From an uncultured Fibrobacteria bacterium (GTDB lineage Bacteria; Fibrobacterota; Fibrobacteria; UBA11236), in assembly GCA_963716395.1 (NCBI GenBank), contig OY970309.1:1876402-1940401 (forward strand): a stretch of 64,000 bases of DNA, in the 5' to 3' direction. Shown in pieces: positions 15,601-31,055 of this stretch. Position numbers and translations under genes: made by a program. Below the pieces are notes generated by a model, which ran no database searches, had not been told where the DNA came from, and saw nothing but the letters and a program-made list of their open reading frames with translations. Within the stretch, counting starts at the first letter, position 1. Each line of letters starts with the position of its first letter.

Positions 15601-15715
15601 CAGCGGACTCGCCATCGGCACTTTGTTCACACTGCTGGTGGTGCCGGCCGTATACATGCAGATCGCCAGCAATCACGTGAAACCACGCGCAACGGCCGAT
15701 AGCTCTACAGTCTGA
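12647..15715 (+). CDS. RND multidrug efflux permease (HAE1/AcrB family)
   Basis: 1022 aa; N-terminus MKFTDIFIRRPVLAMVVSLFLLVLG and 12-TM architecture typical of AcrB/MexB. Confidence 0.95.
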   Translation: MKFTDIFIRRPVLAMVVSLFLLVLGLRSFGTLPILQFPRTQNAVITVSTTYFGADPDLVAGFITTPLENAIAQVNGIDYMTSSSTNSRSVITVNLKLNYDADKALTEMNAQISSVLNQLPPQTQKPVMTISIGQTLDAMYIGFSSKELPSNRITDYLQRVVQPKLQAVDGVQTAELLGAKNFALRAWLNPKKLAAYGLTAADVSAALAQNDFLSGVGNTKGLMVQTNLNASTNLHSLDEFRNLVIRQSGHAMVRLKDIANVTLGADDYDSQVSFDGQDATYIGIQVAPSANLLDVIKRVREVMPELQAQLPEGIDARIVYDSTRFVNSSIQEVIKTLIEAILVIMLVIFAFLGSPRSVLIPVIAIPLSLIGTFTFMLAFGFSINLLTLLAFVLAIGLVVDDAIIVVENVSRHIEEGVPPMQSALHAARELAGPIIAMTVVLVSVYVPIGFQGGLTGALFTEFAFTLVGTVTVSAIIALTLSPMMCSRLLRPHRPEDTGLESRVVHFINATFEKVRKVYARTLHNSLDYLPVTAVFALIVLGSIYFLYSAAKHELAPQEDQGVIIASLTPAPNSTLQQQELYSQQNYRIYAKHAETDHVFQFDLPGRMFAGMVLKPWDERDKTTNQLQPVVQKELGDIAGVQAVAFQPPSLPGSRGLPIQFVIGTTQPFDRLNDVVQNFLEQAQKSGMFMFINSDLRIDLPQSTVEIDRNKAALLGLSMQDIGNSLAAMLGGGYVNYFSLSGRSYKVIPQVQQRYRLNTSQLLNYYIRTASGTSVPLSSVVHITTKTAPESLNHFQQLNAATVQGVASPGITTGEALSYLKHLADRTLPQGYSIDYAGQSRQFMQESTGFVTLFAFALIIIFLALAAQFESFRDPFIILVSVPMSVAGALIFVSLGIGGASLNIYTQVGLVTLMGLISKHGILIVQFANNLRREGKTKREAIEEAATIRLRPILMTTAAMVLGVIPLIVASGAGAAARYNLGLVIASGLAIGTLFTLLVVPAVYMQIASNHVKPRATADSSTV

Positions 15716-17954
15716 TGGTCAAACCGCCGCGGAACTGCCTGGGCTCGGCGGGATGAAAAACAAGGTCATCCACACCGTCCGCGGGTTCTCCCGGCAGGCG
15801 GGTCACATAATCGTAGGCCATGTCGTCGACCTGGGTGTCGAAAATATTGAAGACGTCTCCGTACACACTCACATGGCGGTTGAGGGCGCAGGTGATTTGA
15901 CCGTTGAACAGGGTCGAGGAAGAGGATCGTACGCTGTTGTCCTGGGTGAGCGCGCGGGGTCCGAAAAAGCGCATGAACAAACCCGCCGACCACGGTCCCA
16001 GGCGGTGGAGTGAAACGCCCGCTGAAACCGCGGACTCGATCGCCTCGGGCACGTACTGCCCCTCCGAATCGGGATCCACAAACCTGGCCCGCGAAAACGC
16101 AAGGTCGAGGTCGAAAAGCAGCCAGGGCACGGGTTGGTAATGCTCATTGATCTCGATCCCCATTCTGCGCGTAGGGCCTGCGGGTTCGGTGGTTCCCTCG
16201 TCGGCATCCCACACCAGCTCGGAATTGAAGTCCAACAGCCACAGCGCCAACGAGCTTTGCAATCCGGGTACCGCTTCGGAACGGCCGCCGATCTCGAAAC
16301 CGCGCGACCGGACGAGCAGTGAATCCTGGCTGATGGTCTCGCCGCTCTTGGCATCGATCGTGGCGGTGGCGCCGCGGGCGTCGTTGGAGTGATAGCCGTC
16401 CCCGAAGTTCAGGTAAAATTCCGTCTTCGCCCAAGGCCCCAGAATGAGAGAGGCCTTGGGCAGCAGGATGCCTTCGGAAACCCATCCCGAATTGGCGGGA
16501 TTGCTCGCCTGCACATTGGCGCCCAGAAACGCGTAACGAAGACCGAGGTAAAGGCGGCTCCAGGATGTGAAGTGGCTCTCCAGATCGGTCCAGTACCCGA
16601 CGGTCGGTTCCTGGACCGTGTCCACGGCCCAGGGATTCAGCCGCATCCGGTCCATGGTATGGTAGAGCGCGACGGGAGCGATGTCATCGTAGCGTGCGTC
16701 CAGGCCGAGCCGTAACTTTTCCCCCCATCCCAGCACGGAGCCATCCTTGGTCCACCGCTCCGAAGTCCCGAAAATCCAGCGATTGTCCAACTGCTCCATT
16801 TGATCGCCGTTCACGGTGTCGTCGAGGAAAAAGGTGAAGTTGGAATACAGATTCATGTCGTACTTGACGGCGTAGGCGTTCGCGCGCAAGGCGCCGCCCC
16901 CCAATTCCCCGTCCCAGGCCGTGGAAAAGCTGTAGCGATGCGAAGAGCCGCCGTCGCTGGAATCGAGCGTTCCGTAGTAGTCCACCGCCCCTTCCGTGAC
17001 CGCTCTTTCGGGGATCTGGTTCGTGGCGTTCCACGTGCCCGAGTAGGCCATGCCTTCGAGGCTGAACAGGCCGCTGCCGAGCGGGTGGCTCCAGCGCAGC
17101 AGTTCGTTGAATTTTCGGTAATCCTCCGGCACATCCCACGGGCCGTCCTCATGCAAGGCTTCGATCCCGAGCAAGAGTTTACCGCCGAAAAGATCCGCGG
17201 AGGCTCCGCCGATGGAACGGTTATACCCGAAGGCGCCGAGGGTCTGATCCAGGAAAGGATGGGCCACGCTGTTTTCGTAATAAATATCGGCCGCGCCGGC
17301 TGAGGCAAAATCACCCCTCGAAGCATCGTAGGGGCCTTTCGTATAGTCGACGTGATCGATGAACTCCGGCAGGAGGAAATTCAGGTCATCGTAGCCCTGG
17401 CCATGGGCATGGGTGGGAAGGTTGACCGGCACGCCGTCGACCGAGGTCGCGAAATCGGTACCGTGATCGAGATTGAACCCGCGCAGCAGGAATTGGTTCG
17501 CTTTGCCGGCACCGCTGTGCTGCGTTACGATCAGCCCGGGAACCAATTCCTCCACTTCGCCGGGCCTTAACAGCGGCCTGTCTTCCAGCAACTCCTTGGT
17601 GTAGGTTCCGCTGCTGGCGGCGTCTGCGGAGCCTAAAAGGCCTTGGTAATGCCCGACCACGATGATCGGCTTCATGGGTTTAACGACTGCCGTATCCTGC
17701 CGAACATTCGGTTTCGCAGACGAACCGCTTACGGTGGCGACGGTATCGTGCTTGACCGCGCTCGTCGAATCGGCCTCAACTTGCGCCGGCAGGGTCTGCG
17801 GTTCGGGCACCTGACCGAAGCCGGCTCGAGCCCACGGCAAGGCGGCCAAGAAAAAAAAGAGCCCGCCGCGAATGAGCTTAGGCGCTTTCGGGTTGACCTG
17901 CGAGTAGCCCCGGAAGCGCATCTGCGTCTGGGCGAGGAAAAATTTTGTTGGCAT
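15705..17954 (-). CDS. TonB-dependent outer membrane receptor
   Basis: ORF 15705..18407; start placed at Met 152 behind GGGAG; signal peptide; plug-domain motifs (FLLRGFNLDHGTDFATSVDGVPVN); long beta-barrel; 3' end overlaps the convergent RND gene by 11 bp. Confidence 0.8.
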   Translation of the reverse strand: MPTKFFLAQTQMRFRGYSQVNPKAPKLIRGGLFFFLAALPWARAGFGQVPEPQTLPAQVEADSTSAVKHDTVATVSGSSAKPNVRQDTAVVKPMKPIIVVGHYQGLLGSADAASSGTYTKELLEDRPLLRPGEVEELVPGLIVTQHSGAGKANQFLLRGFNLDHGTDFATSVDGVPVNLPTHAHGQGYDDLNFLLPEFIDHVDYTKGPYDASRGDFASAGAADIYYENSVAHPFLDQTLGAFGYNRSIGGASADLFGGKLLLGIEALHEDGPWDVPEDYRKFNELLRWSHPLGSGLFSLEGMAYSGTWNATNQIPERAVTEGAVDYYGTLDSSDGGSSHRYSFSTAWDGELGGGALRANAYAVKYDMNLYSNFTFFLDDTVNGDQMEQLDNRWIFGTSERWTKDGSVLGWGEKLRLGLDARYDDIAPVALYHTMDRMRLNPWAVDTVQEPTVGYWTDLESHFTSWSRLYLGLRYAFLGANVQASNPANSGWVSEGILLPKASLILGPWAKTEFYLNFGDGYHSNDARGATATIDAKSGETISQDSLLVRSRGFEIGGRSEAVPGLQSSLALWLLDFNSELVWDADEGTTEPAGPTRRMGIEINEHYQPVPWLLFDLDLAFSRARFVDPDSEGQYVPEAIESAVSAGVSLHRLGPWSAGLFMRFFGPRALTQDNSVRSSSSTLFNGQITCALNRHVSVYGDVFNIFDTQVDDMAYDYVTRLPGEPADGVDDLVFHPAEPRQFRGGLTIRL

Positions 17955-18162
17955 AAAAACTCCCGGTTTTTTTGAACGCAGCTCTGGTATTATTATTTTA
18001 ATAAACGTAATAAGTACACTCCGTTCCTCCCAAGCGCAAGGCGTTTCGCGGCGAATTGGTTCTTCCTGGGGATCGGTGATATTGGGTCGCAACCCGAAGC
18101 CGGCCGGCGCGGCACACAGGTCGCCGCTTCGGGGTCGGGCGCGAAATTGATACACTTTCGGC

Positions 18163-19608
18163 ATGGAAATGAGTGAAGCGTTAAGCCGATTCGACGCCCT
18201 GACGCCCCTCGTGCTGGGCGACAGTTTTATCGATGAATACGTAACCGGCGACTGCTCGCGGCTTTCGCCCGAGGCCCCGGTTCCGGTGCTGCATGTGGAT
18301 GCGGGACAGACCCGGCGCGTGTTGGGAGGCGCAGCCAATACCGCCGCCAATATCGCCGCCTTGGGCGGCAAGCCGGTGCTCTTCGCCCTGTACGCGCGCG
18401 ACGACATGGGCCAGGAATTTGAAGCGCAATGCGCGGCCGCGGCCGTAACCCTCGAACCTTTTCACGACGGCCGCCCCACGCCACGCAAGACCCGGCTTTT
18501 GGGCCAGCGCCAGCAATTGCTGCGGCTTGATTATGAGGAAACCCGCGACGTCGAGGCCGATGTCGAAGCGCACCTATTCGCCGTTTTTCAACGGCGCCTG
18601 CCGCACGCCGATTTCGTGGTCTTCTCCGATTATGCCAAAGGGTTGCTCACGGCCGAGCTTGCCCCGCGCCTGATTCGCGCTGCCCGCGCCGCCGGAAAAC
18701 CGGTGATCGTCGATCCGCGCCCGCAGCATGCGGACCGCTACCACGGCTGCGATTACCTTACGCCCAACTGGAAGGAATCTTTGGGCATGCTGGGCCGCGG
18801 AGAACTCGAACCCACCATGGCCAATGTGCGCGACGTCGGCGACACCTTGCGGCGGCGGCAGGAATCGCATGTGCTGCTCACCCTGGGCCCCAAGGGCATG
18901 GCGTTTTTCCATCGCGACTCCGGCGAATTCTTTCACCTTCCCACCGCCGCGCGCGAAGTGTATGACGTGTCCGGCGCTGGCGACACCGTGGTGGCGGCCT
19001 TCGCCCTGGCCCATGCGGCCGGAATGTCGCACCGCGCGGCCGTCGAATTGGCCAATCGCGCCGCGGGCGTGGTGGTGGGCAAATTGGGAACCGCCACGGT
19101 CACGCGCGAGGAGTTGTCGCAGCCGTCGTCCGGGGGCGGTTTGCTGGTCCGGAACCAACTGGCGCCTTTGGCCGCCTTGCTGCGCGCCCAGGGAAAATCC
19201 ATCGTGACCCTCAACGGCTCCTTCGACCTGTTGCATGCCGGCCACTTGCACATTCTCACAGAGGCCAAAAATCAAGGCGACATGCTGATCGTGGGCTTGA
19301 ACAGCGATGCTTCGGTGCGGCGCTATAAGGCGGCTGGGCGCCCTTTGATTCCCCAGACCGAACGCGCGCGCATGCTGCTGGCCCTGCGTTGTGTGGACTA
19401 CGTGCACATCTTCGACGAAGACGTGCCCATGCCCTTTCTCGCAGCCGTGCGACCCGACGTGCACGTGAACGGGTCGGAATACGGCCAAGACTGCATCGAA
19501 GCCCCGACGGTCCGGCGCTTCGGCGGCCGCATCCACATCGTGGAAAAAATCCCCGGTCTTTCCACCAGCGCGCTTCTCGACCGCATCCGTAACCTGCCGG
19601 TGTCGTAA
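18163..19608 (+). CDS. hldE: Bifunctional D-beta-D-heptose 7-phosphate kinase / heptose 1-phosphate adenylyltransferase
   Basis: 481 aa; N-terminal ribokinase-like sugar kinase domain and C-terminal cytidylyltransferase-like domain (SFDLLHAGHLHIL). Confidence 0.95.
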   Translation: MEMSEALSRFDALTPLVLGDSFIDEYVTGDCSRLSPEAPVPVLHVDAGQTRRVLGGAANTAANIAALGGKPVLFALYARDDMGQEFEAQCAAAAVTLEPFHDGRPTPRKTRLLGQRQQLLRLDYEETRDVEADVEAHLFAVFQRRLPHADFVVFSDYAKGLLTAELAPRLIRAARAAGKPVIVDPRPQHADRYHGCDYLTPNWKESLGMLGRGELEPTMANVRDVGDTLRRRQESHVLLTLGPKGMAFFHRDSGEFFHLPTAAREVYDVSGAGDTVVAAFALAHAAGMSHRAAVELANRAAGVVVGKLGTATVTREELSQPSSGGGLLVRNQLAPLAALLRAQGKSIVTLNGSFDLLHAGHLHILTEAKNQGDMLIVGLNSDASVRRYKAAGRPLIPQTERARMLLALRCVDYVHIFDEDVPMPFLAAVRPDVHVNGSEYGQDCIEAPTVRRFGGRIHIVEKIPGLSTSALLDRIRNLPVS

Positions 19609-19612
19609 GCCC

Positions 19613-19990
19613 ATGCGCATCCACGCGCTGGATTCTTTTTCCGAGGCCCCGCGCGGAAAATTCGTGCTGCTGCGCTTTCGGGGAACGGTGCATTTCGTTT
19701 CGGGATCGGTGGAGCAGCGGCCCTATCACGCGAATCTCATCTTCGACTTCTTCGCGCAAACGGAATGGGGCCGCGCCGAATGGGAGGGGGAGACCCGGTG
19801 CGCAATCCGCACCCCGGGTTGGGAGATTCTCGGCGGCGGCCGCTATGAAATCGACGAGGCCGAGGGCGTGTTGATTTTATCCGAGAAGTCCACTGCCTAT
19901 GGAAAGTTCTCCGCGGAAGAAATCGCTGCGCAGGCGGCCGATTTGCTTGCGGCCATGCCGTCTCCGGGTTTTCGTCTGCGCCTCGATTGA
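19613..19990 (+). CDS. Hypothetical protein co-transcribed with hldE
   Basis: 125-aa ORF starting 4 nt after the hldE stop; no recognisable family. Confidence 0.45.
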   Translation: MRIHALDSFSEAPRGKFVLLRFRGTVHFVSGSVEQRPYHANLIFDFFAQTEWGRAEWEGETRCAIRTPGWEILGGGRYEIDEAEGVLILSEKSTAYGKFSAEEIAAQAADLLAAMPSPGFRLRLD

Positions 19991-20039
19991 GAGGTCGCAT
20001 GCACCTTCGGCGCGAGGAGATGAATTTTCTCGGTTCTCG

Positions 20040-20300
20040 CACATTGTTATCCAAATTTTGGTATGTGGTTACCTTAATCAAGGAGTTTTTACCCGTATTT
20101 CGTTATCCGAAAAACGAAATTTCTGAATGCAATTTATAGGATAATTTCTAATTTAAGCGGAAATAAGCCGGATTATGGCTGTATACCGTTATCCCTCTAT
20201 AAAGAATTGATTGTTTTCCGGTCCCGTTATCGAATATATTGACCTTAACTTCTTCGGAAGTCGGAGACTGCGAAACACATCACTACCACGGAGAGAGGAT
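20040..20300. promoter_or_regulatory. AT-rich regulatory region with repeated GTTATC(C) motifs and an 8-bp inverted repeat
   Basis: Markedly AT-rich compared with the flanks; GTTATCC/GTTATCG four times; ATTTCGTT-N8-AACGAAAT inverted repeat; lies upstream of the lipoprotein / TIGR02147-like locus. Confidence 0.4.
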
Positions 20301-20301
20301 C

Positions 20302-21117
20302 ATGAAACTTACCAACGCCATTTCACCCGTTCTGAAATACAGCGCTGCGGCCGCGCTGTTGACCTTGGGATTCACCGGCTGCATGACTTCGCCGAGTAGT
20401 AGCAGCAATACGGCCGGCTACACCAGCAGCGGTGAAAGCGCCTTTATCAAACAAGAATCCGAAAACATGGGCCAGGTGTGGAACAGCGGCGCATCGGCCT
20501 CGACTTCGACCGGCTTGGCCAAAGAGGCTTCCGACACCGTCATGGACACCATCACCGGCGACCTGGTGATCACACCGCTGCACTATGACTCCGCCTGCCA
20601 ATGCTTTGTGCGCGTGGCGAATTACACCAGCTCGGTGGGCTTCGAACGCCAGCGCCTCGACAGCATCACCTTGGTTGACTCGAACGGCAATCCCATGAGC
20701 CGGTTTCGGCCGTTGCTGGCGAAGACCATCATCCATAACCGGCACGTGACCCGAATCCGTAGCAATCTGGGTACTGAGGTCGACGTCAATTTCAATACCA
20801 CTTTGACCTGGGCCGACAGCGGCAGCAAGCGCGTCGGCGTCTGGAACGGTACCATCACCGGAACCTTCAACGGCGTGACGTTCAAGACGGGCAGCATCGA
20901 CAACGTCGTGCGCACCTGGTACCCCCTGTTGCTGCGCTTCGGATTTCCGTCATCCGGTTCCATCGATATCGATCGCATCTCGGGCAAAGGGGCCGAATTC
21001 ACGCTCGACATCGTCTTCACCGGCGAAGGCTCGGCCGATGTGTCCGTGACCAATAAAGCGACGGACAAAACGCTCACGATTCATATCGGATTGAACAACG
21101 TGGAAACTTCAGGATAG
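20302..21117 (+). CDS. Lipoprotein, function unknown
   Basis: ORF 20239..21117; start placed at Met 22 behind GGAGAGAGG; lipoprotein signal peptide with lipobox (LTLGFTGC). Confidence 0.7.
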   Translation: MKLTNAISPVLKYSAAAALLTLGFTGCMTSPSSSSNTAGYTSSGESAFIKQESENMGQVWNSGASASTSTGLAKEASDTVMDTITGDLVITPLHYDSACQCFVRVANYTSSVGFERQRLDSITLVDSNGNPMSRFRPLLAKTIIHNRHVTRIRSNLGTEVDVNFNTTLTWADSGSKRVGVWNGTITGTFNGVTFKTGSIDNVVRTWYPLLLRFGFPSSGSIDIDRISGKGAEFTLDIVFTGEGSADVSVTNKATDKTLTIHIGLNNVETSG

Positions 21118-21246
21118 GTCGAGGGACGCGGCCTTGGGGCTACGGCCCTGGGGCCGCGGGGCCGCCATGAACGTGTTCGTTCCCCATACCATTTCCCGAC
21201 CCGCTTTTCCGAGAGGCGGGTCTTGTTATTCTGAAATGTAAAGATC

Positions 21247-22146
21247 ATGGAACCACAGCCCCTCCCCGCCGCGCGACCGAACGTCTACCAATACGACGAT
21301 TTCCGGGCCTTTTTGCGCGACGCCTTCGCGTTCAAAAAAGGCGAAGACCCGGAGTATTCCCACCGCAAGTTCGCCCGGGCCGCAGGCATCGCCAATCCCG
21401 GCTATCTGCTCGACGTCATTCTGGGCAAGCGACCCTTGAGCCGCAATCAGGCTGCGAAAATGGCGCCGGTGTTCGGATTAAACGAGGCCGAAGCCGAATT
21501 TTTTTTCCGCTTGGCCGAGTTCGGCCAAAGCAAAAAAGACGCGGAGCGGCAGGAGTTGTACCACGATTTGCTGTTGCGCCGCAACCGCAGCCGCTTTGCG
21601 CGCCTCAGCCCTTCGCTGGTCAAGTATTATCAGGATTACCGCTACGCGCTGGTGCGCTGTGCGGTCGAAGCCCTGGATTTCCGCGGCGATTACGAGGCCC
21701 TGGGAAAATTCCTCGATCCGCAGGTGGCGCCGGCCGTGGCGCGCAAATGCGTGCAAGAACTGGAAGCATGGGGACTGATCGTGAAGGACGAAAGCGGCCG
21801 CTACCGCGTCACGCAGAAATTCGTGGAGCCGCCGCCCACCCTGTCGGCCATGGTGCGCCGCCTGAACCGGGAATGGATTCTGCAGGCGGCCGAAGTGCCG
21901 TTTAAATTTGGTCCGGAGGATCGGCATGTCTCCGCCCTTTTGCTGATGGTGAGTGAAACCACGCGCCGGCAGTTGATGGCTAAGGTCGAGCAGTTCCGCA
22001 AGGAAGTGCTGGACTTGGTGGAAAAGGACGAGCATCCCGAAACCATCTTGCAACTATCGGTGCAACTGTTTCCCAAGTCACGCCGTCCAGCGCGTCCGGG
22101 TCGCGAAAAGAATCGCGAAAAGAATCACGAAGAGGAGAAGCCATGA
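21247..22146 (+). CDS. TIGR02147-like protein (putative HTH regulator, DUF4423-like)
   Basis: 299 aa; N-terminal pattern YQYDDFRAFLRDAF...YSHRKFARAAGIANPGYLLDVILGKRPLS...FGLNEAEAEFFFRLAEFGQSKK matches, from recall, the TIGR02147 family that is expanded in Fibrobacter and Bdellovibrio. Confidence 0.7.
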   Translation: MEPQPLPAARPNVYQYDDFRAFLRDAFAFKKGEDPEYSHRKFARAAGIANPGYLLDVILGKRPLSRNQAAKMAPVFGLNEAEAEFFFRLAEFGQSKKDAERQELYHDLLLRRNRSRFARLSPSLVKYYQDYRYALVRCAVEALDFRGDYEALGKFLDPQVAPAVARKCVQELEAWGLIVKDESGRYRVTQKFVEPPPTLSAMVRRLNREWILQAAEVPFKFGPEDRHVSALLLMVSETTRRQLMAKVEQFRKEVLDLVEKDEHPETILQLSVQLFPKSRRPARPGREKNREKNHEEEKP

Positions 22147-23483
22147 GATTTGCGACCGGGATCGCCATCCTGGCGGCCACTCTGCTCGGGGCCTGCGTCT
22201 TCGAGCAGCAAACGGCGGGCGGCGAAGATTTTCCCAATACGCTGGAACCCCTGGGCAAGGCGGCCGCCGAACCCATCGCCAACCACACCCAATGGGATCA
22301 ATTCCAGAACATTCCGGCCGTGCCGAACGTTCAGTCCAGCGACACCCTGGCTCAGCCCGCGCCCACGGCCAAACCCGCTTTGGCCAAGATCGCGGCGTCA
22401 GACAGCGCCACCTGGGATTTGCGCGACACGGCCTTGGCGCAGGGCGGCGTGGCGCGGGAATACGTGGTGAAATCCGGCCTGTTGAAAATCGAACGCGATA
22501 CCTTGGTCTATCGATGGAACGCGGCCTTCGGGGATTCGGTTCCCGGCAGCGCCGTATTGCTCGAAGTGCGCGGCCGAACCCTGACCTATCTCACTTTGCG
22601 CCTGTTGGTTTACCGCTATTTGAATCTGGATTCGAGCGGCGCCTTGGATCAGGCGGATTTCACGGAATACACCGTGGGTTTCGCCGACAGCGCGGTGCAT
22701 ATTCTGCACATCAAGATGCTGGCCGGTCCCGACGGCGATTTGGCGACCTTGGGCGACAATTTGTGGAAGCAGTACGAGTTTCTGCGGGTGCGCGGCGGAA
22801 CCGACACGTTGGAATGGACGCGGGTGGTCGACGCCGACGGCGACGGCCTGTTGTGGTCCGGCGGTGATTCGGGGATGGTGGACTTGCGGCAAGACGTGGA
22901 GTCGCCCGCGTTACGGCCGCAAGACCTGCATCTGTCGCTCAACTTGCGCGCCAAGGTGTACCACAAAGGCGACAGCGCGATCCCGCTGGCGTATACCGAG
23001 ACCAACGCGTTGCGCAACGGGGTGACGACGGTTTTTACGGCCAAGGGCGTGCATGTCGACTCGCTGCTCATTCCCGGCGACACGGCCGTGGTCACCTTCG
23101 ACCAGATTTATCCTCCAGATGCGGACCGGGTAGAGTCCTATGCGCGTTACCGCATTCTGCTGGCGTCCCAGCCGTGGCATTTCGCCGACAACGCCCTCAT
23201 CCGCTTCCACGCCGAAAATACCTGGCGCGCGGGCGTCATCCGCAGTGCGATCATGGATTTTACGCCTGACAGCATGGTGGTTTCGGGCCAGCTGCAGATC
23301 GCGGGCAGCTTCACTTTGAGCGTGGTGTACGATGACGGCGGCACGGGTGCGGTGACCGGAACCTACCGCAATCACATCATCGCGGCCACCTTGCACCAGA
23401 ATAAAGCGGGTCTGCTGCAAACTTTTTCGCTGAGCTTCGACGCCAACGGCAAATTGCTGACCCAATCCTTGCTGCCGCCATGA
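22143..23483 (+). CDS. Lipoprotein, function unknown
   Basis: 446 aa; signal peptide with lipobox (LLGAC); start overlaps the upstream stop as ATGA. Confidence 0.7.
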   Translation: MRFATGIAILAATLLGACVFEQQTAGGEDFPNTLEPLGKAAAEPIANHTQWDQFQNIPAVPNVQSSDTLAQPAPTAKPALAKIAASDSATWDLRDTALAQGGVAREYVVKSGLLKIERDTLVYRWNAAFGDSVPGSAVLLEVRGRTLTYLTLRLLVYRYLNLDSSGALDQADFTEYTVGFADSAVHILHIKMLAGPDGDLATLGDNLWKQYEFLRVRGGTDTLEWTRVVDADGDGLLWSGGDSGMVDLRQDVESPALRPQDLHLSLNLRAKVYHKGDSAIPLAYTETNALRNGVTTVFTAKGVHVDSLLIPGDTAVVTFDQIYPPDADRVESYARYRILLASQPWHFADNALIRFHAENTWRAGVIRSAIMDFTPDSMVVSGQLQIAGSFTLSVVYDDGGTGAVTGTYRNHIIAATLHQNKAGLLQTFSLSFDANGKLLTQSLLPP

Positions 23484-23703
23484 TCCAAATCCCGCTCCCT
23501 CCGCAGACGGTCTGAGTACCGCCTCGGCCTTCGGCCGGTTCGACATCCCTCGACGGGCTCGGGAACCAAGCTCACCGACCGAAAAGGGTTCGGCAGGCTT
23601 TGGAAACCGGCTCAGGGCGCGGCGAATGAGCCTGCCGTGTGGCCGACTCCGCGGCGGGTGAGCCTGTCGAACCCGCCGGGATCGGTGCGTGATCTTTTTT
23701 TAT

Positions 23704-24795
23704 TTAACCGGGTTGGTTCCGCGGTTGAATTTCGGCGCGCAGGGCCGCGAAGGCTTTCCACACCGTCTCCGCCCGCAAGGTTTTGAGGCATTCCTTGTAA
23801 TTCGGATTGACGCAGCGGTGACCGCAGGGCCGGCAGGGCATGGGTTCAACCTGCACGCACCGCGTCAGCGGCCCGCGCGGTTCCACGTGCCGGGCGTCGG
23901 ACGAGCCGTTGATCCAGAGCACGGGTTTGCCGTAATACCCGGCCATGTGGCCCAAAAAATTGTCGGTGGCCACCACGCCGGCCGCGTTCTGCACCTGGCC
24001 CGCCAGCCGCAACAGCGGTCCGCGCCAAAAACCCACGCGCTGCGCCCAGCGGCTGCGGAAGCGCGCAAACCCGGCGCCGGCGTCAGGGGGATCGAGAATC
24101 AGCAAGGGCAAGCGCGACTCCGTCATTTTTTCCAGCAAGTCGTCCCAATGCTCGAAGGGCCAGTTCTTGGAGTCTTTGCGCGTCCAGCAGGAAAGAATCC
24201 ACGGCGCGGTGACGGTGTCGAGGAGGGGAAAGGAACGGGTCTCGCGGCGCAAACCGGCCGATGACGTCAGCGCGCATTTCTTTTCCCAATTGCGGCGATG
24301 CTCCCAAAACGCCGCGGCCACGGCGGCGTTCTTGTCGGCTTGATGCACGGCCTCGGCCGGCAGGGGAAAGCGATACTGGAAAAACCAGGCGTGCGGCCGT
24401 GCATAGGAGGTCACGCGGCAGGCGCCGGCCACGCGCAGCCAAAAGGCGCTGCGCGGATCGGCATCGAAGTCGAGCGCCCAATATCCCAACGCGCCCCGCA
24501 GCTTGCAGGCCGCCGCCCCGGTGCGCAGAAAAGAGCGCAGTCCCGGCCGCCGGAAAAAGGCGTTGTCGAAGGCCAAGCCCTCCAGCCCCTCGGCCTGGAG
24601 CAGTTCGAGGCAATCGGGACGGCAAACGATTTGCACGCGCACGTGGCTGGCCAAGGTTTTGATCGCCGGCAGCGCCAGATATAAATCGCCGATCATATAA
24701 CTCTGGAAAATCGTGAGCGGCGCAGCGTTGTCGCGCGGTTTTTTCCGTAGCAGCCACAGCCAGGGCGTCAGGGCCACGGCTCCCGCCGCCGCCAT
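23704..24795 (-). CDS. Glycosyltransferase family 9 (LPS heptosyltransferase-like)
   Basis: ORF 23704..24885 begins at TTG; start placed at Met 31; GT9 C-terminal motif (VVATDNFLGHMAGYYGKPVLWINGSSD). Confidence 0.8.
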   Translation of the reverse strand: MAAAGAVALTPWLWLLRKKPRDNAAPLTIFQSYMIGDLYLALPAIKTLASHVRVQIVCRPDCLELLQAEGLEGLAFDNAFFRRPGLRSFLRTGAAACKLRGALGYWALDFDADPRSAFWLRVAGACRVTSYARPHAWFFQYRFPLPAEAVHQADKNAAVAAAFWEHRRNWEKKCALTSSAGLRRETRSFPLLDTVTAPWILSCWTRKDSKNWPFEHWDDLLEKMTESRLPLLILDPPDAGAGFARFRSRWAQRVGFWRGPLLRLAGQVQNAAGVVATDNFLGHMAGYYGKPVLWINGSSDARHVEPRGPLTRCVQVEPMPCRPCGHRCVNPNYKECLKTLRAETVWKAFAALRAEIQPRNQPG

Positions 24796-27651: not shown

Positions 27652-30351
27652 TTAATGCGCGTTCAACACCAAGCGGCGCCATACATGGCCGTCTGGTTGG
27701 CGTAATTGCAAGACCACCAAACCCTCGGACAGGCCGTGTAGGTCCACCGAGCTGCCGTCGGAGGCAGGCTGCAAGATCAAGCTGCTAACGCCGTGGCCGT
27801 TGATGGGGGTGACCGTCAATTGCGCCGCTTGCGACAGTCCAAAAAGACGGAAACGGCCGTTGCCCAGGTTTTGCAGGACAAGGTCCTTCGCCGCAGACGA
27901 CGGCCGGACGCCCGCATTCCCCGGTAAAATTTGAAAGACGTGATCGCTGAGGTCACGGGTACGCCCGAAATACTCATACACGGTGACCAGGCAGCGGTTT
28001 GAAACCAAGGATTTTCCATCCAAAGAATCGGGCAACTGGAAGGCGAAGCGGCCCCAATCGGCATCGCCGACGCGCACCGAACTGGTGCGGGTGAGGGGAA
28101 TCCAACTCGCGCCGCTATCCACGGAAAGCTCGATGCCAACCGAAAGCACCCACGACGTGTCGGCGGTCCAACGCACAATCAGGGAATCGCCGACTCGATA
28201 TTGCTCGCCCCCGTTGGGCGCATTCACCTGCACGGGTGTGGGCGCATCGCTGTAGGCTTCGATCGCGGCCAAGCCATAACCGCCGCCGTCGGCCGCGCTG
28301 AGCGAGATGCCGAGTCCGTTGCTGTCGGATACCGTGACATCCGTCTCAAAAATCATTGCCCCGATGGCACCCGCGGGCTTGGCCGGCGCCGCGAAGGGCG
28401 CTCCGATGGTTTGACCTTCGAGTCCCACGCTCAAACTTGAGGTTGCCTTCGCCGACGCATCGTTCAAGCTGGTGAAATGCAGACGCACGTGATAGCGGTT
28501 GTTGGGTACCGGCAGGGTCAAACCGGAAGGGCTGTTGCGATAGAGGCGGTAGGCGACCGCGGGAGCCGGGTCGATGACCGAATCCAGTTGCACGATGGTG
28601 TCGCTTTGCCGCACCAGCGGCATCGTACCCAGGAGGGAGGTATCCGGCAGCCAGCCCGCACCCAGGGCGGGTTCAGCGGCATAGCGCCATACGCCTTTGG
28701 CCACCACCACCGAAGTGGTGCACACCACGGCCCCTTCAGACCCGTAAGCGGAAAAGGTGTGGAAGACCTGGCTCGAATCCGCGGTGGCTTGTCCGCCGGA
28801 GGTGAGATGCAAACCGGAAGAACCGGTCCAGGTCAAGGGCGATGCCAAAGTCCAGGGCCGTCCGATTTGATCCTTTCCATCCGCCGCGAGCTGCACCGTG
28901 TCGCCCGGCCGGAGCACGGCCGTATGCGGACGCGGCACCAGGGTGGTGAGCGCCGGATTGGCATACAGGAAGGTTACGGTGTAAGCCGCTGAATCGACGC
29001 CCTGGCCATAGCTCAAAACCACACGGGCCCTATAACTTCCCAGGGGCAGATTTTTGCGGGTCACGGTGTTGACCACCTGCGGGGCATTGGTGCCATTGGC
29101 GAGAATCGTGACCCGCAGCCAGGTGGTGTCGGAATCGGGATAGGCGGCCGTCAACGGCGGCAAAACGCCATCGCCGGCGTTGGATACATGCGTCGTGTCG
29201 GGTCCAGGGTCGGCGCTGTCTTGCGGCAGCGCGGTGAACAGGAAGGCATCGCGATCCAGGCGAAGAGTGGCCGGGGTTACGCCGTTTTTGACCCACAGAT
29301 GCGGGGTCAGATTCACCCCGTCGCCTTCCAACACCCGCAGCAGGCGGCTGGGACCGGAGGTATCGATGCGCACGATGTAGAGATCGCCCGAATCGGCGAT
29401 ATCGACGTCTTTGGATCCGGTGGCCGTGAAATAGTCTTCGTCGGTGGACCATTCGGGGTTACCCCAGAATAGATTGCCGCTGCTGTCGTTGTTGCAGTTG
29501 TCACCGGGAATGCCCATGTACCAGAAGGGATGATCGATGTCGGGATCATTCCAACCCCGGATGAAAATAGCCTTGTGGTTGTCGTAAACCTTGCCCTCCA
29601 CCGTGCCTTGCCCCGAGGTCAAATACATCATGCGGTCCTGGCGCGTGGGATCGGTCGACATGCTGATCGAGGCGTTGCAACCCGACAGCCATCCCGAGGT
29701 CAGCCAGTTTTTCGAGGCCAGGTAGGCCGTATCGATTCGGGTGGAATCGAGTTCGTACATGCCGGTGCTGTGGTGTGACGAAGCGCCCCACCGCCCGTCG
29801 CGCGAGCGACCCGTCGACATCAGATAGGGCACCAGCATCGTGGCCGGCCCCAATGTGTCATGGCCGTTGACGATGCGCCGGATATAGGTGCCCCCGCTGG
29901 CGGGCGGCCAGGTGGGGTCATTGATGTCGCCCAAGGTGTAGGTCACGTATTCGTTCCCAGTGCCGGGTTGCACCCACCAATGGGGCTCCAACGATTCGCC
30001 GCTGGGACGATCCACGCTGCCGCAGTAAACCGCGTATTCGGTTTGCGAGTTCTCGACCAGGTCGCGCACGAACACGCTATCGAAGCGTTCGTAGAGCACG
30101 CGCGTTCCGTCCCAACTGATCATGGGGTTGGCGGCCTCGGTCGTGGCCACCCGGTGTTCCACCAGTACGCTGTCGTCAAAGTCGAGGTAATAAATCTGGT
30201 AGGTGTAGTCCCGGATGAACGCGACTTTGCCGGTGCGGCCGCCCAAAAAGGCGCGCACCTCCGGGCCGGTGACCAGGGCCTTGGCCTCCGCGGGCCGCCA
30301 GACCGACAGCATCGCCGCACCCACGGCGGCGGCCCACCCGAAAAATTTCAC
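27652..30351 (-). CDS. Large secreted multidomain protein (beta-propeller-like N-region, Ig-like repeats, possible C-terminal sorting domain)
   Basis: ORF 27652..30423; start placed at GTG (MKFFGWAAAVGAAMLSVWRPAEA signal peptide) overlapping the SGNH stop as GTGA; beta-rich repeats; C-terminal ~80 aa resemble a Por/T9SS-type sorting domain. Confidence 0.6.
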   Translation of the reverse strand: MKFFGWAAAVGAAMLSVWRPAEAKALVTGPEVRAFLGGRTGKVAFIRDYTYQIYYLDFDDSVLVEHRVATTEAANPMISWDGTRVLYERFDSVFVRDLVENSQTEYAVYCGSVDRPSGESLEPHWWVQPGTGNEYVTYTLGDINDPTWPPASGGTYIRRIVNGHDTLGPATMLVPYLMSTGRSRDGRWGASSHHSTGMYELDSTRIDTAYLASKNWLTSGWLSGCNASISMSTDPTRQDRMMYLTSGQGTVEGKVYDNHKAIFIRGWNDPDIDHPFWYMGIPGDNCNNDSSGNLFWGNPEWSTDEDYFTATGSKDVDIADSGDLYIVRIDTSGPSRLLRVLEGDGVNLTPHLWVKNGVTPATLRLDRDAFLFTALPQDSADPGPDTTHVSNAGDGVLPPLTAAYPDSDTTWLRVTILANGTNAPQVVNTVTRKNLPLGSYRARVVLSYGQGVDSAAYTVTFLYANPALTTLVPRPHTAVLRPGDTVQLAADGKDQIGRPWTLASPLTWTGSSGLHLTSGGQATADSSQVFHTFSAYGSEGAVVCTTSVVVAKGVWRYAAEPALGAGWLPDTSLLGTMPLVRQSDTIVQLDSVIDPAPAVAYRLYRNSPSGLTLPVPNNRYHVRLHFTSLNDASAKATSSLSVGLEGQTIGAPFAAPAKPAGAIGAMIFETDVTVSDSNGLGISLSAADGGGYGLAAIEAYSDAPTPVQVNAPNGGEQYRVGDSLIVRWTADTSWVLSVGIELSVDSGASWIPLTRTSSVRVGDADWGRFAFQLPDSLDGKSLVSNRCLVTVYEYFGRTRDLSDHVFQILPGNAGVRPSSAAKDLVLQNLGNGRFRLFGLSQAAQLTVTPINGHGVSSLILQPASDGSSVDLHGLSEGLVVLQLRQPDGHVWRRLVLNAH

Positions 30352-31055
30352 CGGAGCACCGCTGCGATGGAATCGGCCAGAATCGAGGCGATGGCTGCAT
30401 GGCCGTGATTGCCGGGATGCCATTGGATGGCAGGATCGGCATAGCCCGAGTTATAAGCGTAGTTGGCGGAGTCTTTGGCGAGGGCCGTGATATCGACGAG
30501 ATGGACATCGTCAATTCCCTGCATGGCCTGGAGAACCGCGGCCGTGCGGAGGGCTGTCAGGGTCGTGTCGTTCCATACCGACAGGCAGAAAATGGGGAAG
30601 TCGCCGCCTTGCCGCAGGGCCCACAAAAGTTCGCGATATTGAAAGAGAAGTTGGCCGGTTTCCACTTCGAGGTCATTCGAATTCTCGCCCAATTGCACCA
30701 CCACCCAGCGCGGATGGGCTTGGGTCAGGTCCCAAGTCACATTGTGAAAATGTTCGTCGATGGGGCCGTCGCAAACCTCGCAGTCGCGGCGGCCATAGAA
30801 GATGCCCGCGGCGACGCCGAGTGGCTGCAAATCGCGGATGGTGGAATGGACGTAATCGCTGTCCGGAACCGTGGCTGCCATGCCGTTCTCTTGGCTCCAA
30901 CCGATGGACGGCAGCGAATCGTGCAAGGTGATGCTATTACCCAAAAACAGCACATTCGGCGGTTGTGTTTGCGTGTTGAACATGCAGGCCTGCAGGATCG
31001 AAATCCCGATCCAGGCAACCCCCCCACAACTTAAGATACGCAAGGGCCACCTCAT
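30348..31055 (-). CDS. SGNH/GDSL-family hydrolase
   Basis: ORF 30348..31217; start placed at Met 55 (signal peptide MRWPLRILSCGGVAWIGISILQAC); GDS(L)-like block LFLGNSIT and C-terminal HPGNHGH. Confidence 0.75.
   Translation of the reverse strand: MRWPLRILSCGGVAWIGISILQACMFNTQTQPPNVLFLGNSITLHDSLPSIGWSQENGMAATVPDSDYVHSTIRDLQPLGVAAGIFYGRRDCEVCDGPIDEHFHNVTWDLTQAHPRWVVVQLGENSNDLEVETGQLLFQYRELLWALRQGGDFPIFCLSVWNDTTLTALRTAAVLQAMQGIDDVHLVDITALAKDSANYAYNSGYADPAIQWHPGNHGHAAIASILADSIAAVLR

Follow-up and report, generated by a model that had tools for sequence, protein, structure and literature searches.

The question of what a protein of the TIGR02147 family controls, and through which DNA sites, arises at a three-gene module of an uncultured Fibrobacteria bacterium (assembly GCA_963716395.1, contig OY970309.1). 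The DNA analyzed, from here on the window, comprises 64,000 nucleotides of this contig (positions 1,876,402 to 1,940,401 of the forward strand) and is numbered from its first letter. The three genes of the module all lie on one strand and encode a lipoprotein (lipoA), a putative regulator and a second lipoprotein (lipoB); they are preceded by an AT-rich intergenic island with several copies of the hexamer GTTATC (Table 1). An original prediction, made from the letters of the DNA, had described this layout as a regulated envelope module. Comparison with 79 Fibrobacterota loci returned by a scan of a genome collection (given here with L numbers) supports and sharpens this view, as the repeats recur as conserved, phased sites and the pair of regulator and lipoB is nearly universal. 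We consider it probable (about 0.6) that the module is one copy of a cassette multiplied in Fibrobacterota, in which an autoregulated TIGR02147 transcription factor controls its own lipoprotein genes via GTTATC in the manner of an activator.

Family and fold of the regulator

The regulator is a true member of TIGR02147 ('Fsuc_second')/DUF4423, just as had been proposed. It matches the NCBIfam hidden Markov model TIGR02147 over model positions 2-271 of 272 (206.2 bits, E = 6.3e-61) and DUF4423 (PF14394) over residues 114-276 (60.8 bits, E = 1.8e-16), well above the cut-off of 50 and the gathering threshold of 30 bits, respectively. Relatives are labelled Fibrobacteria, Fibrobacterota or Chitinivibrionales, and several TIGR02147/DUF4423 copies are present per Fibrobacterota genome. 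Genes with DUF4423 also exist in other groups, i.e. in Bdellovibrio, Myxococcota and Leptospira.

Structure prediction with AlphaFold2 (mean predicted local distance difference test, pLDDT, 83; predicted template modeling score 0.70) yielded an XRE-like helix-turn-helix (HTH), a winged helix at about residues 130-190 and C-terminal helices. The first of these domains shows the five-helix Cro/cI-type fold, its predicted HTH helices are formed by residues 39-46 and 53-58, and its nearest structural neighbors are the repressors P22 c2, DdrO, C.AhdI and HigA. Helix 53-58 (YLLDVI), which follows an A-G-I-x-N-P-G turn, is what we take to be the recognition helix by analogy with the Cro/cI fold. The chain as a whole has no counterpart among solved structures, and a search of PDB sequences with the regulator profile returned nothing significant. 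None of the Pfam HTH models matched at E <= 10; the sole match, to the cyanase N-terminal domain (E = 0.06), was not significant. Neither a signal peptide nor a membrane segment is seen in sequence or model. PADLOC models for defence systems matched none of four proteins, and nothing resembles a pair of extracytoplasmic function sigma factor and anti-sigma factor: no protein contains a sigma-70 domain and the cassette encodes no membrane protein.

Pairing of the regulator with a lipoprotein

An open reading frame (ORF) of at least 150 aa begins within 300 nt after the regulator gene in 77 of the 78 loci with enough downstream sequence, and in 76 of these 78 it encodes a cysteine that is followed, 2-16 residues on, by the signature [AG]G-x-(E/D)(D/E)[FIY]PN. 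The lipoB-type start is located 3 nt before the regulator stop in 54 loci. This is the geometry of the overlap in the window, where the original prediction had noted ATGA coupling to a 446-aa lipoprotein and where regulator stop and lipoB start can be read directly at 22143-22146, with GAGGAG placed 5 nt upstream of the lipoB start codon. The pairing is kept in orthologs (regulators 60-84% identical) as well as in paralog classes (43-50% identical), the lipoB partners of the latter being 22-28% identical and still conserving the N-terminal (E/D)DFPN motif. The conserved unit is the regulator-lipoB pair, and it is nearly universal for the family in Fibrobacterota.

Both lipoA and lipoB are predicted to be lipoproteins on the basis of a signal peptide followed by a lipobox, the cysteine of which is invariant in both alignments; for lipoA, this bears out the suggestion that a second lipoprotein stands ahead of the regulator. 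Among 21 lipoB sequences Cys18, G26, D29, P31, N32, W51 and a few Asp/Gly positions are invariant; among 30 more diverse sequences this applies to Cys18 and G388 only, with G26, P31 and N32 present in at least 90%. The family is narrow, comprising 283 representative clusters among 1.84 billion proteins. The AlphaFold2 model of lipoB (pLDDT 84) contains 27 strands. Neither lipoprotein matched any Pfam, NCBIfam or PADLOC model, and the 30 diverse lipoB members yielded, one chance hit aside, no match in Pfam. Profile searches of the PDB with lipoA and lipoB gave nothing significant, lipoB returning weak matches to EF-hand loops (E ~0.1). Kinship between lipoA and lipoB was considered and dropped, as the two share nothing beyond signal peptides.

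The nearly invariant pairing, the frequent overlap of stop and start codons and the retention of (E/D)DFPN in otherwise strongly diverged paralogs would also fit a role of lipoB as a sensor that reports the state of the envelope to the regulator, similar to RcsF or NlpE in envelope stress, with the coupling keeping both proteins in proportion. We regard this as improbable. The regulator has no signal peptide or membrane segment and the cassette does not encode a membrane-spanning transducer, so that there is no evident route from an extracytoplasmic lipoB to a cytoplasmic regulator.

Two loci contain in addition very distant TIGR02147-like genes (L012:2164-3030 and L018:9420-10250, about 30% identical) that are ATGA-coupled to genes for lipoproteins of 573 and 810 aa, respectively. 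These lipoproteins lack the DFPN signature, and GTWATC sites were not seen upstream.

A promoter class with phased hexamers

The island stands out by its base composition, as had been pointed out originally, with a GC content of 0.38-0.39 across 20000-20299. It carries the four predicted GTTATC(C) copies, three of which read GTTATCC (sites 0, 1 and 2 at 20046, 20102 and 20188) and one GTTATCG (site 3 at 20226). Three of the four GTTATCC copies of the window thus fall into this 310-bp island. A first-order Markov model that reproduces the composition of the island predicts 0.11 copies of GTTATC, and at least four arose in 0 of 5000 simulations. All 18 orthologous loci have such a low-GC island ahead of the module, and GTTATC recurs there on the gene strand. 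Across the five loci in which lipoA comes first, the positions of sites 0-3, a TTG, a TAnnTT and a small hairpin can be aligned, while the rest of the island has diverged. The hairpin, (G/A)ACTTC-loop-GAAG, is kept 6-7 nt after the -10-like hexamer in the window, L081, L002 and L069, and transcription probably starts near 20248.

The sites also occur at fixed distances from each other. Of 91 same-strand GTWATC pairs found 60-140 bp apart, 19 have a spacing of 75-77 bp and 18 one of 86-88 bp, with about seven expected at the two spacings together (six bins of 81). A motif-free search for hexamers repeated at both spacings upstream of regulators retrieved GTAATC in 16 loci, GTTATC in eight and GTAATA in eight, and nothing comparable emerged at control spacings. 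One helical turn separates the two peaks, suggesting a need for paired sites to lie on a common face of the DNA. TTG follows exactly 17 nt after the proximal hexamer (offset 23) in 27 of 64 paired-site promoters, and TAnAnT stands another 17-18 nt downstream (offsets 45-47, counted from the proximal site) in 39 of the 64, giving the shared layout distal GTWATM - (76 or 87 bp) - proximal GTWATM - N17 - TTGnnn - N17/18 - TAnAnT. Promoters of lipoA exhibit a third copy that abuts the -10 hexamer (GTTATCGGA-TAYATT; window, L002, L010, L011, L012, L014, L016, L018, L069 and L081). Regulator promoters are devoid of such a spacer site and have a single proximal site centered near -55. With about seven exceptions, the 64 paired sites stand before genes for TIGR02147 or lipobox proteins; among the latter are lipoA-like proteins and the lipoproteins of 720-860 aa encoded after GFKP-class cassettes (see below). 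On comparison of the loci, the GTTATC copies are conserved, phased candidate sites of a promoter class that is largely tied to TIGR02147 cassettes.

An ordinary AT-rich promoter region with chance matches to low-complexity repeats would be a simpler explanation, given that such intergenic regions are normal in GC-rich genomes and that GTTATCC is not over-represented when the whole window is shuffled (4 observed versus 3.5 expected). It is hardly credible for GTTATC: local clustering is far above chance, positions are kept in relatives with diverged flanking DNA and the spacing is quantized. The same explanation does apply to two further elements of the original prediction, the inverted repeat ATTTCGTT-N8-AACGAAAT and the GGTTACC palindrome. 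Both exist where they had been located, and neither is conserved even in L081, the regulator of which is 84% identical. The inverted repeat is absent from L081, L082, L002 and L069, where just its GTTATCC(R)AAA part recurs, and GGTTACC appears in other loci solely at unrelated positions; both are probably incidental. The concern that the repeats might be low-complexity sequence is thereby dispelled for GTTATC and justified for the other two.

Two other interpretations of the island were rejected. A Bacteroidetes-type -33/-7 promoter (TTTGTAATC…TTACTTT) was dropped in favor of the TTGnnn-N17-TAnAnT pair at fixed distance from the site; literature on a Fibrobacter promoter consensus offered nothing usable. 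DNA inversion or phase variation is not indicated, as the copies are direct instead of inverted and no recombinase gene is found among the annotated neighbors in the window. Rfam covariance models gave no match at E <= 1 for 19500-23800.

The attachment of lipoA to the cassette is looser than that of lipoB. Homologs are present in at least 13 loci. In the window, L002, L069, L081, L082, L022, L023 and L034 lipoA comes before the regulator; L010-L014, L016 and L018 have it after lipoB, and L029 has it on the opposite strand. Those examined with enough upstream sequence are preceded by a corresponding single or paired GTWATC site. We presume that lipoA belongs to the same regulon, as a mobile gene with a promoter of its own.

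A further paired-site promoter (GTAATA twice, 86-87 bp apart) was noted downstream of GFKP-class cassettes, before a gene for a large lipoprotein of 460-860 aa (…GCFS…IEGRV…; L025:9124, L026:9415, L043:4003, L045:9523, L065:9488, L076:9635 and L079:9253). This lipoprotein appears to have the role that lipoA plays in the class of the window. Regulators of a 'YFNDV' class feature a TATACT -10 hexamer just 6 nt before the ATG (MDVYQY…; L039:6953-7010, L047:6941-7000, L059:292-350, L066:6941-7000 and similar), and because of this short distance their mRNAs look leaderless.

Site variants and regulator classes

The hexamer variant appears to track the regulator paralog and a residue in the predicted recognition helix (L55 versus N or G), with exceptions. 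Regulators with NPG[YF]L-L-DV…GKR, the class of the window, go along with GTTATC (30 of 46 core hexamers), those with x-N-DV or x-G-DV…GRR with GTAATC and those with LNDVIKGFKP with GTAATA (19 of 29 core hexamers). GTTATC is likewise the variant of three remoter paralogs whose helix has Leu or Ile in this place, namely L053 (TLLHV), L073 (TLIQV) and L080 (LLLDI). All three classes are encountered together in single genomes (L012/L065/L066, L018/L076/L052, L014/L037/L051 and L010/L043/L062); the site variant is therefore a property of the cassette and not of the genome. Within a locus, the promoter of the regulator and that of a neighboring extra lipoprotein share the variant: six loci have GTTATC at both promoters, six have GTAATA and two have GTAATC.

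These observations bear on the question of whether the sites are read by the regulator at all. An unlinked regulator, a nucleoid protein or a subunit of RNA polymerase might recognize GTWATM, in which case the TIGR02147 protein would have another target or role and merely share a promoter class with the lipoprotein genes. The connection between regulator and sites is an indirect one, non-palindromic sites are unusual for XRE-type proteins, and L035 and L041 break the relation between helix and site. In L035 (2190-2280) a fourth variant, GGTAACA, is present twice, 86 bp apart, yet the regulator has the YLLDV helix of the GTTATC class, and in L041, a GFKP-class locus, one pair consists of two GTAATC copies and a second pair has GTAATC as its distal copy. 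Nevertheless, we judge another reader unlikely. The variant is fixed per paralog class over many genomes and differs between cassettes of one genome, which would require several distinct readers that diverged together with the cassettes, and the only such co-diverging protein present is the cassette's own regulator. Moreover, the motif is rare elsewhere, the island holding the sole cluster in the window.

Proposed mode of control

If the regulator binds these sites, the recognition helix in its N-terminal HTH of XRE type would read GTTATC, and the winged helix may touch the adjacent A-rich tract, since distal sites read GTTATCCRAAA. Same-strand sites would be occupied on one face of the DNA, the main ones being the distal and the proximal site, 86 bp apart. 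The proximal site, centered near -55 of a sigma-70-type promoter with a weak -35 hexamer, would most likely aid RNA polymerase in a class I type of activation. The phased distal site would stabilize binding, and the spacer site next to the -10 hexamer would limit lipoA expression at a high regulator level. Transcription from about 20248 would proceed through lipoA and be attenuated at two hairpins (21127-21158 and 21198-21232), with read-through yielding regulator and lipoB; the regulator gene is situated downstream of the same promoter and the loop would therefore be autoregulatory. Translational coupling at the ATGA would tie the output of lipoB to that of the regulator. Both the identity of the binding protein and the direction of control are inferred here.

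Several points weigh against this model besides the exceptions L035 and L041. In a neighbor-joining tree L053, L073, L080 and L035 are sister to the group of the window and the GFKP class forms one clade, such that the covariation of helix and site amounts to about two independent evolutionary switches and not to dozens. XRE-type proteins usually bind palindromes as dimers; the candidate sites are single hexamers in direct orientation. A strict scan of the island for the sigma-70 consensus found no promoter, and the -35 and -10 hexamers were assigned by alignment only. No promoter was recognized between lipoA and the regulator, where two hairpins are present instead. A literature search for TIGR02147 and DUF4423 retrieved just an incidental mention in a proteomics study of Bdellovibrio, and one for paralogous lipoprotein and HTH families of Fibrobacter retrieved no functional study of either. 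Finally, a site within the spacer next to the -10 hexamer is as compatible with repression as with activation.

This last point leads to a serious, albeit doubtful, alternative, in which the regulator does bind the sites and acts mainly as an autorepressor: distal and proximal sites would be joined by looping, the spacer site would block polymerase, and a signal would bring relief and turn on the lipoproteins. The location of site 3 in lipoA promoters agrees with this, looping repressors typically show phased spacings such as those of 76 and 87 bp, and the closest structural neighbors of the HTH are repressors. On the other hand, regulator promoters lack the spacer site, their proximal site near -55 does not overlap with polymerase, and the weakness of the -35 hexamers (TTGnnn or none) is that of promoters which depend on an activator.

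A bolder version of the activator model would make the TIGR02147 cassettes mutually insulated, self-activating switches, in which each paralog reads its own hexamer (GTTATC, GTAATC, GTAATA or GTAACA) via one or two helix residues and drives only its own signature lipoproteins. We consider this rather unlikely. Were it true, the cell could toggle sets of envelope or surface lipoproteins independently, possibly in a bistable or mutually exclusive manner, and this would amount to a hitherto undescribed means of cell-surface diversification, run by a factor family of unusual XRE-plus-winged-helix architecture.

Leader hairpins and transcription of the regulator

The 129-bp spacer between lipoA and the regulator contains neither a paired-site promoter nor a convincing promoter of the regulator's own. 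The hairpin nearest to the regulator start is a candidate attenuator; its tail is interrupted, the region holds seven terminator-like matches versus 5.5 in shuffled sequences, and hairpin and tail (GGGTCTTGTTATTCT) are conserved in L002 only. A G-rich tract and a GC hairpin at the position of 21127-21158 are found in L002, L069, L081 and L082 as well. Loci L003-L008 do not contain lipoA. There, an 87-bp paired promoter is followed by a G-rich, GC-rich hairpin leader of 170-250 nt and then by the regulator gene. As this promoter has nothing else to express, transcripts presumably cross the hairpins, and regulator and lipoB of the window would be made by attenuated read-through from the island promoter.

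The leaders (L003:4180-4350, L004:6835-7003, L005:6785-7003, L006:6810-7003, L007:6830-7003 and L008:6790-7003) share a long hairpin that is conserved (GGGAGGCG…CCGGGCGGGGGCCTGG…CGCCTCCC) and, ahead of the ATG, a second one resembling a terminator, with compensatory changes in ten pairs of the leader hairpins. For the leader of L005, Rfam returned a sub-threshold chance match only. This leader may be an attenuator or a remnant of the 3' end of lipoA.

Relation to known systems

An autoregulated HTH factor that controls adjacent genes is familiar in kind. What we consider new is the two-domain architecture of the regulator, its translational coupling to a near-obligate signature lipoprotein, the promoter with phased direct repeats and the hexamer variants that are specific to paralogs. 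The regulator matches TIGR02147 over its full length and contains the DUF4423 domain, and this family is itself without described function, DNA site or partner; our computational additions are a two-domain model of DNA binding, an obligate lipoprotein partner and a candidate operator. From XRE/Cro-type repressors such as P22 c2, 434 repressor, DdrO, C.AhdI and HigA the regulator differs in the missing Pfam HTH match and in the extra winged helix and C-terminal helical region, and these repressors use short palindromes, in contrast to direct single hexamers 76 or 87 bp apart. With MarR, ArsR and HxlR winged-helix regulators it shares a likeness of fold at 11-17% identity, and the dimerization helices of MarR are not evident. 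The promoters resemble those of class I activators (CRP at -61.5) in that the proximal site is located upstream of a weak -35, near -55, and at a fixed distance to the -10; this position is counted from the predicted start, and the phased distal site and the spacer site of lipoA are foreign to a simple class I scheme. The surface lipoproteins Borrelia OspA and Campylobacter JlpA, which have long antiparallel beta-sheets, resemble lipoB with low scores that are shared with unrelated barrels and MORN repeats, and there is no sequence relation. Unlike these proteins, the lipoB family has its particular (E/D)DFPN helix-cap motif and DADGDG loop.

For the sizeable orphan family TIGR02147/DUF4423 a testable hypothesis is thus at hand: the regulator would recognize a 6-bp site via a predicted specificity residue (L55) and act on lipoA and lipoB as its predicted targets. 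A paralog-specific code, if true, would be a natural example of insulation among duplicated regulators and a possible source of orthogonal regulator-operator parts. In addition, two lipoprotein families that Pfam lacks are defined here in polymer-degrading bacteria.

Table 1. Features of the regulator-lipoprotein module and its upstream island, in window coordinates.
Feature	Position	Strand	Remarks
AT-rich intergenic island, promoter and leader region	19991-20301	+	GC 0.38-0.41 versus 0.62 for the window
GTTATC site 0, extra upstream copy (GTTATCCAAA)	20046-20051	+	GTTATC aligned in L081 and L002, GTTACA in L069, absent in L082
GGTTACC palindrome	20067-20073		Not conserved
Inverted repeat ATTTCGTT-N8-AACGAAAT	20097-20120		Overlaps site 1; not conserved
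GTTATC site 1, distal	20102-20107	+	86 bp upstream of proximal site, inside the 86-88 bp peak; GTTA invariant in five lipoA-first loci
GTTATC site 2, proximal	20188-20193	+	17 nt upstream of -35-like hexamer; about -58 to -53 from predicted start; GTTAT invariant
-35-like hexamer TTGTTT (predicted)	20211-20216	+	TTG aligned in 4/5 lipoA-first loci
GTTATC site 3 (GTTATCGAA-TATATT)	20226-20231	+	Within promoter spacer, near -10 hexamer
-10-like hexamer TATATT (predicted)	20235-20240	+	TAnnTT aligned in 5/5 lipoA-first loci
Small hairpin ACUUC-UUCG-GAAGU	20248-20261	+	Predicted 5' end of transcript; -4.1 kcal/mol
Shine-Dalgarno-like GGAGAGAGGA	20290-20299	+	
lipoA	20302-21117	+	271 aa; lipobox FTGC (…LTLGFTG-C27)
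GC-rich hairpin, 14 pairs	21127-21158	+	Just past lipoA stop
Terminator-like hairpin, 11 pairs, T-rich tail TTGTTATTCT	21198-21232	+	-17.1 kcal/mol; ends 15 nt before regulator ATG; candidate attenuator
Regulator (TIGR02147/DUF4423)	21247-22146	+	299 aa; predicted XRE-type HTH, winged helix, C-terminal helices
lipoB	22143-23483	+	446 aa; lipobox LGAC (…ATLLGA-C18); signature C-x7-AGGEDFPNT, DADGDG…GDSG loop, all-beta body
Weak hairpin and T-run at module end	23674-23703	+	Faces convergent heptosyltransferase gene

Neighborhood and labels of the loci

Upstream, the module is flanked by a resistance-nodulation-division (RND) efflux operon, a gene for a TonB-dependent receptor on the opposite strand and hldE; downstream reside a convergent gene for a GT9 heptosyltransferase and genes for a GT1 glycosyltransferase and a Wzx-like flippase. 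This lipopolysaccharide-type neighborhood is common to the closest orthologous loci (L002-L008, L069 and L082) and not to L009-L018, and is therefore a feature of the lineage outside the module.

Some neighboring ORFs deserve mention. One of 125 aa (19613-19990, plus strand) begins 5 nt past the hldE stop codon, matches no Pfam, NCBIfam or PADLOC model and is found outside the source genome only in the closest relative L081, at the same position. Another of 923 aa (27652-30423, minus strand) has a coding-like GC content at third codon positions, lies beside polysaccharide genes and has no match in Pfam. The ORF of the TonB-dependent receptor (15705-18407, minus strand) can be extended to 900 aa from the first start codon and then overlaps the start region of hldE; the true start is probably internal, the gene call on L001 being 749 aa.

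For loci L003, L004, L025, L028, L030, L060, L075 and L080, the metagenome-assembled genomes bear the titles 'uncultured Bifidobacterium sp.' or 'Bifidobacteriales'. Their TIGR02147 cassettes are nonetheless typical of Fibrobacterota and syntenic with loci labelled Fibrobacteria, and the Bifidobacterium and Bifidobacteriales labels are probably wrong.

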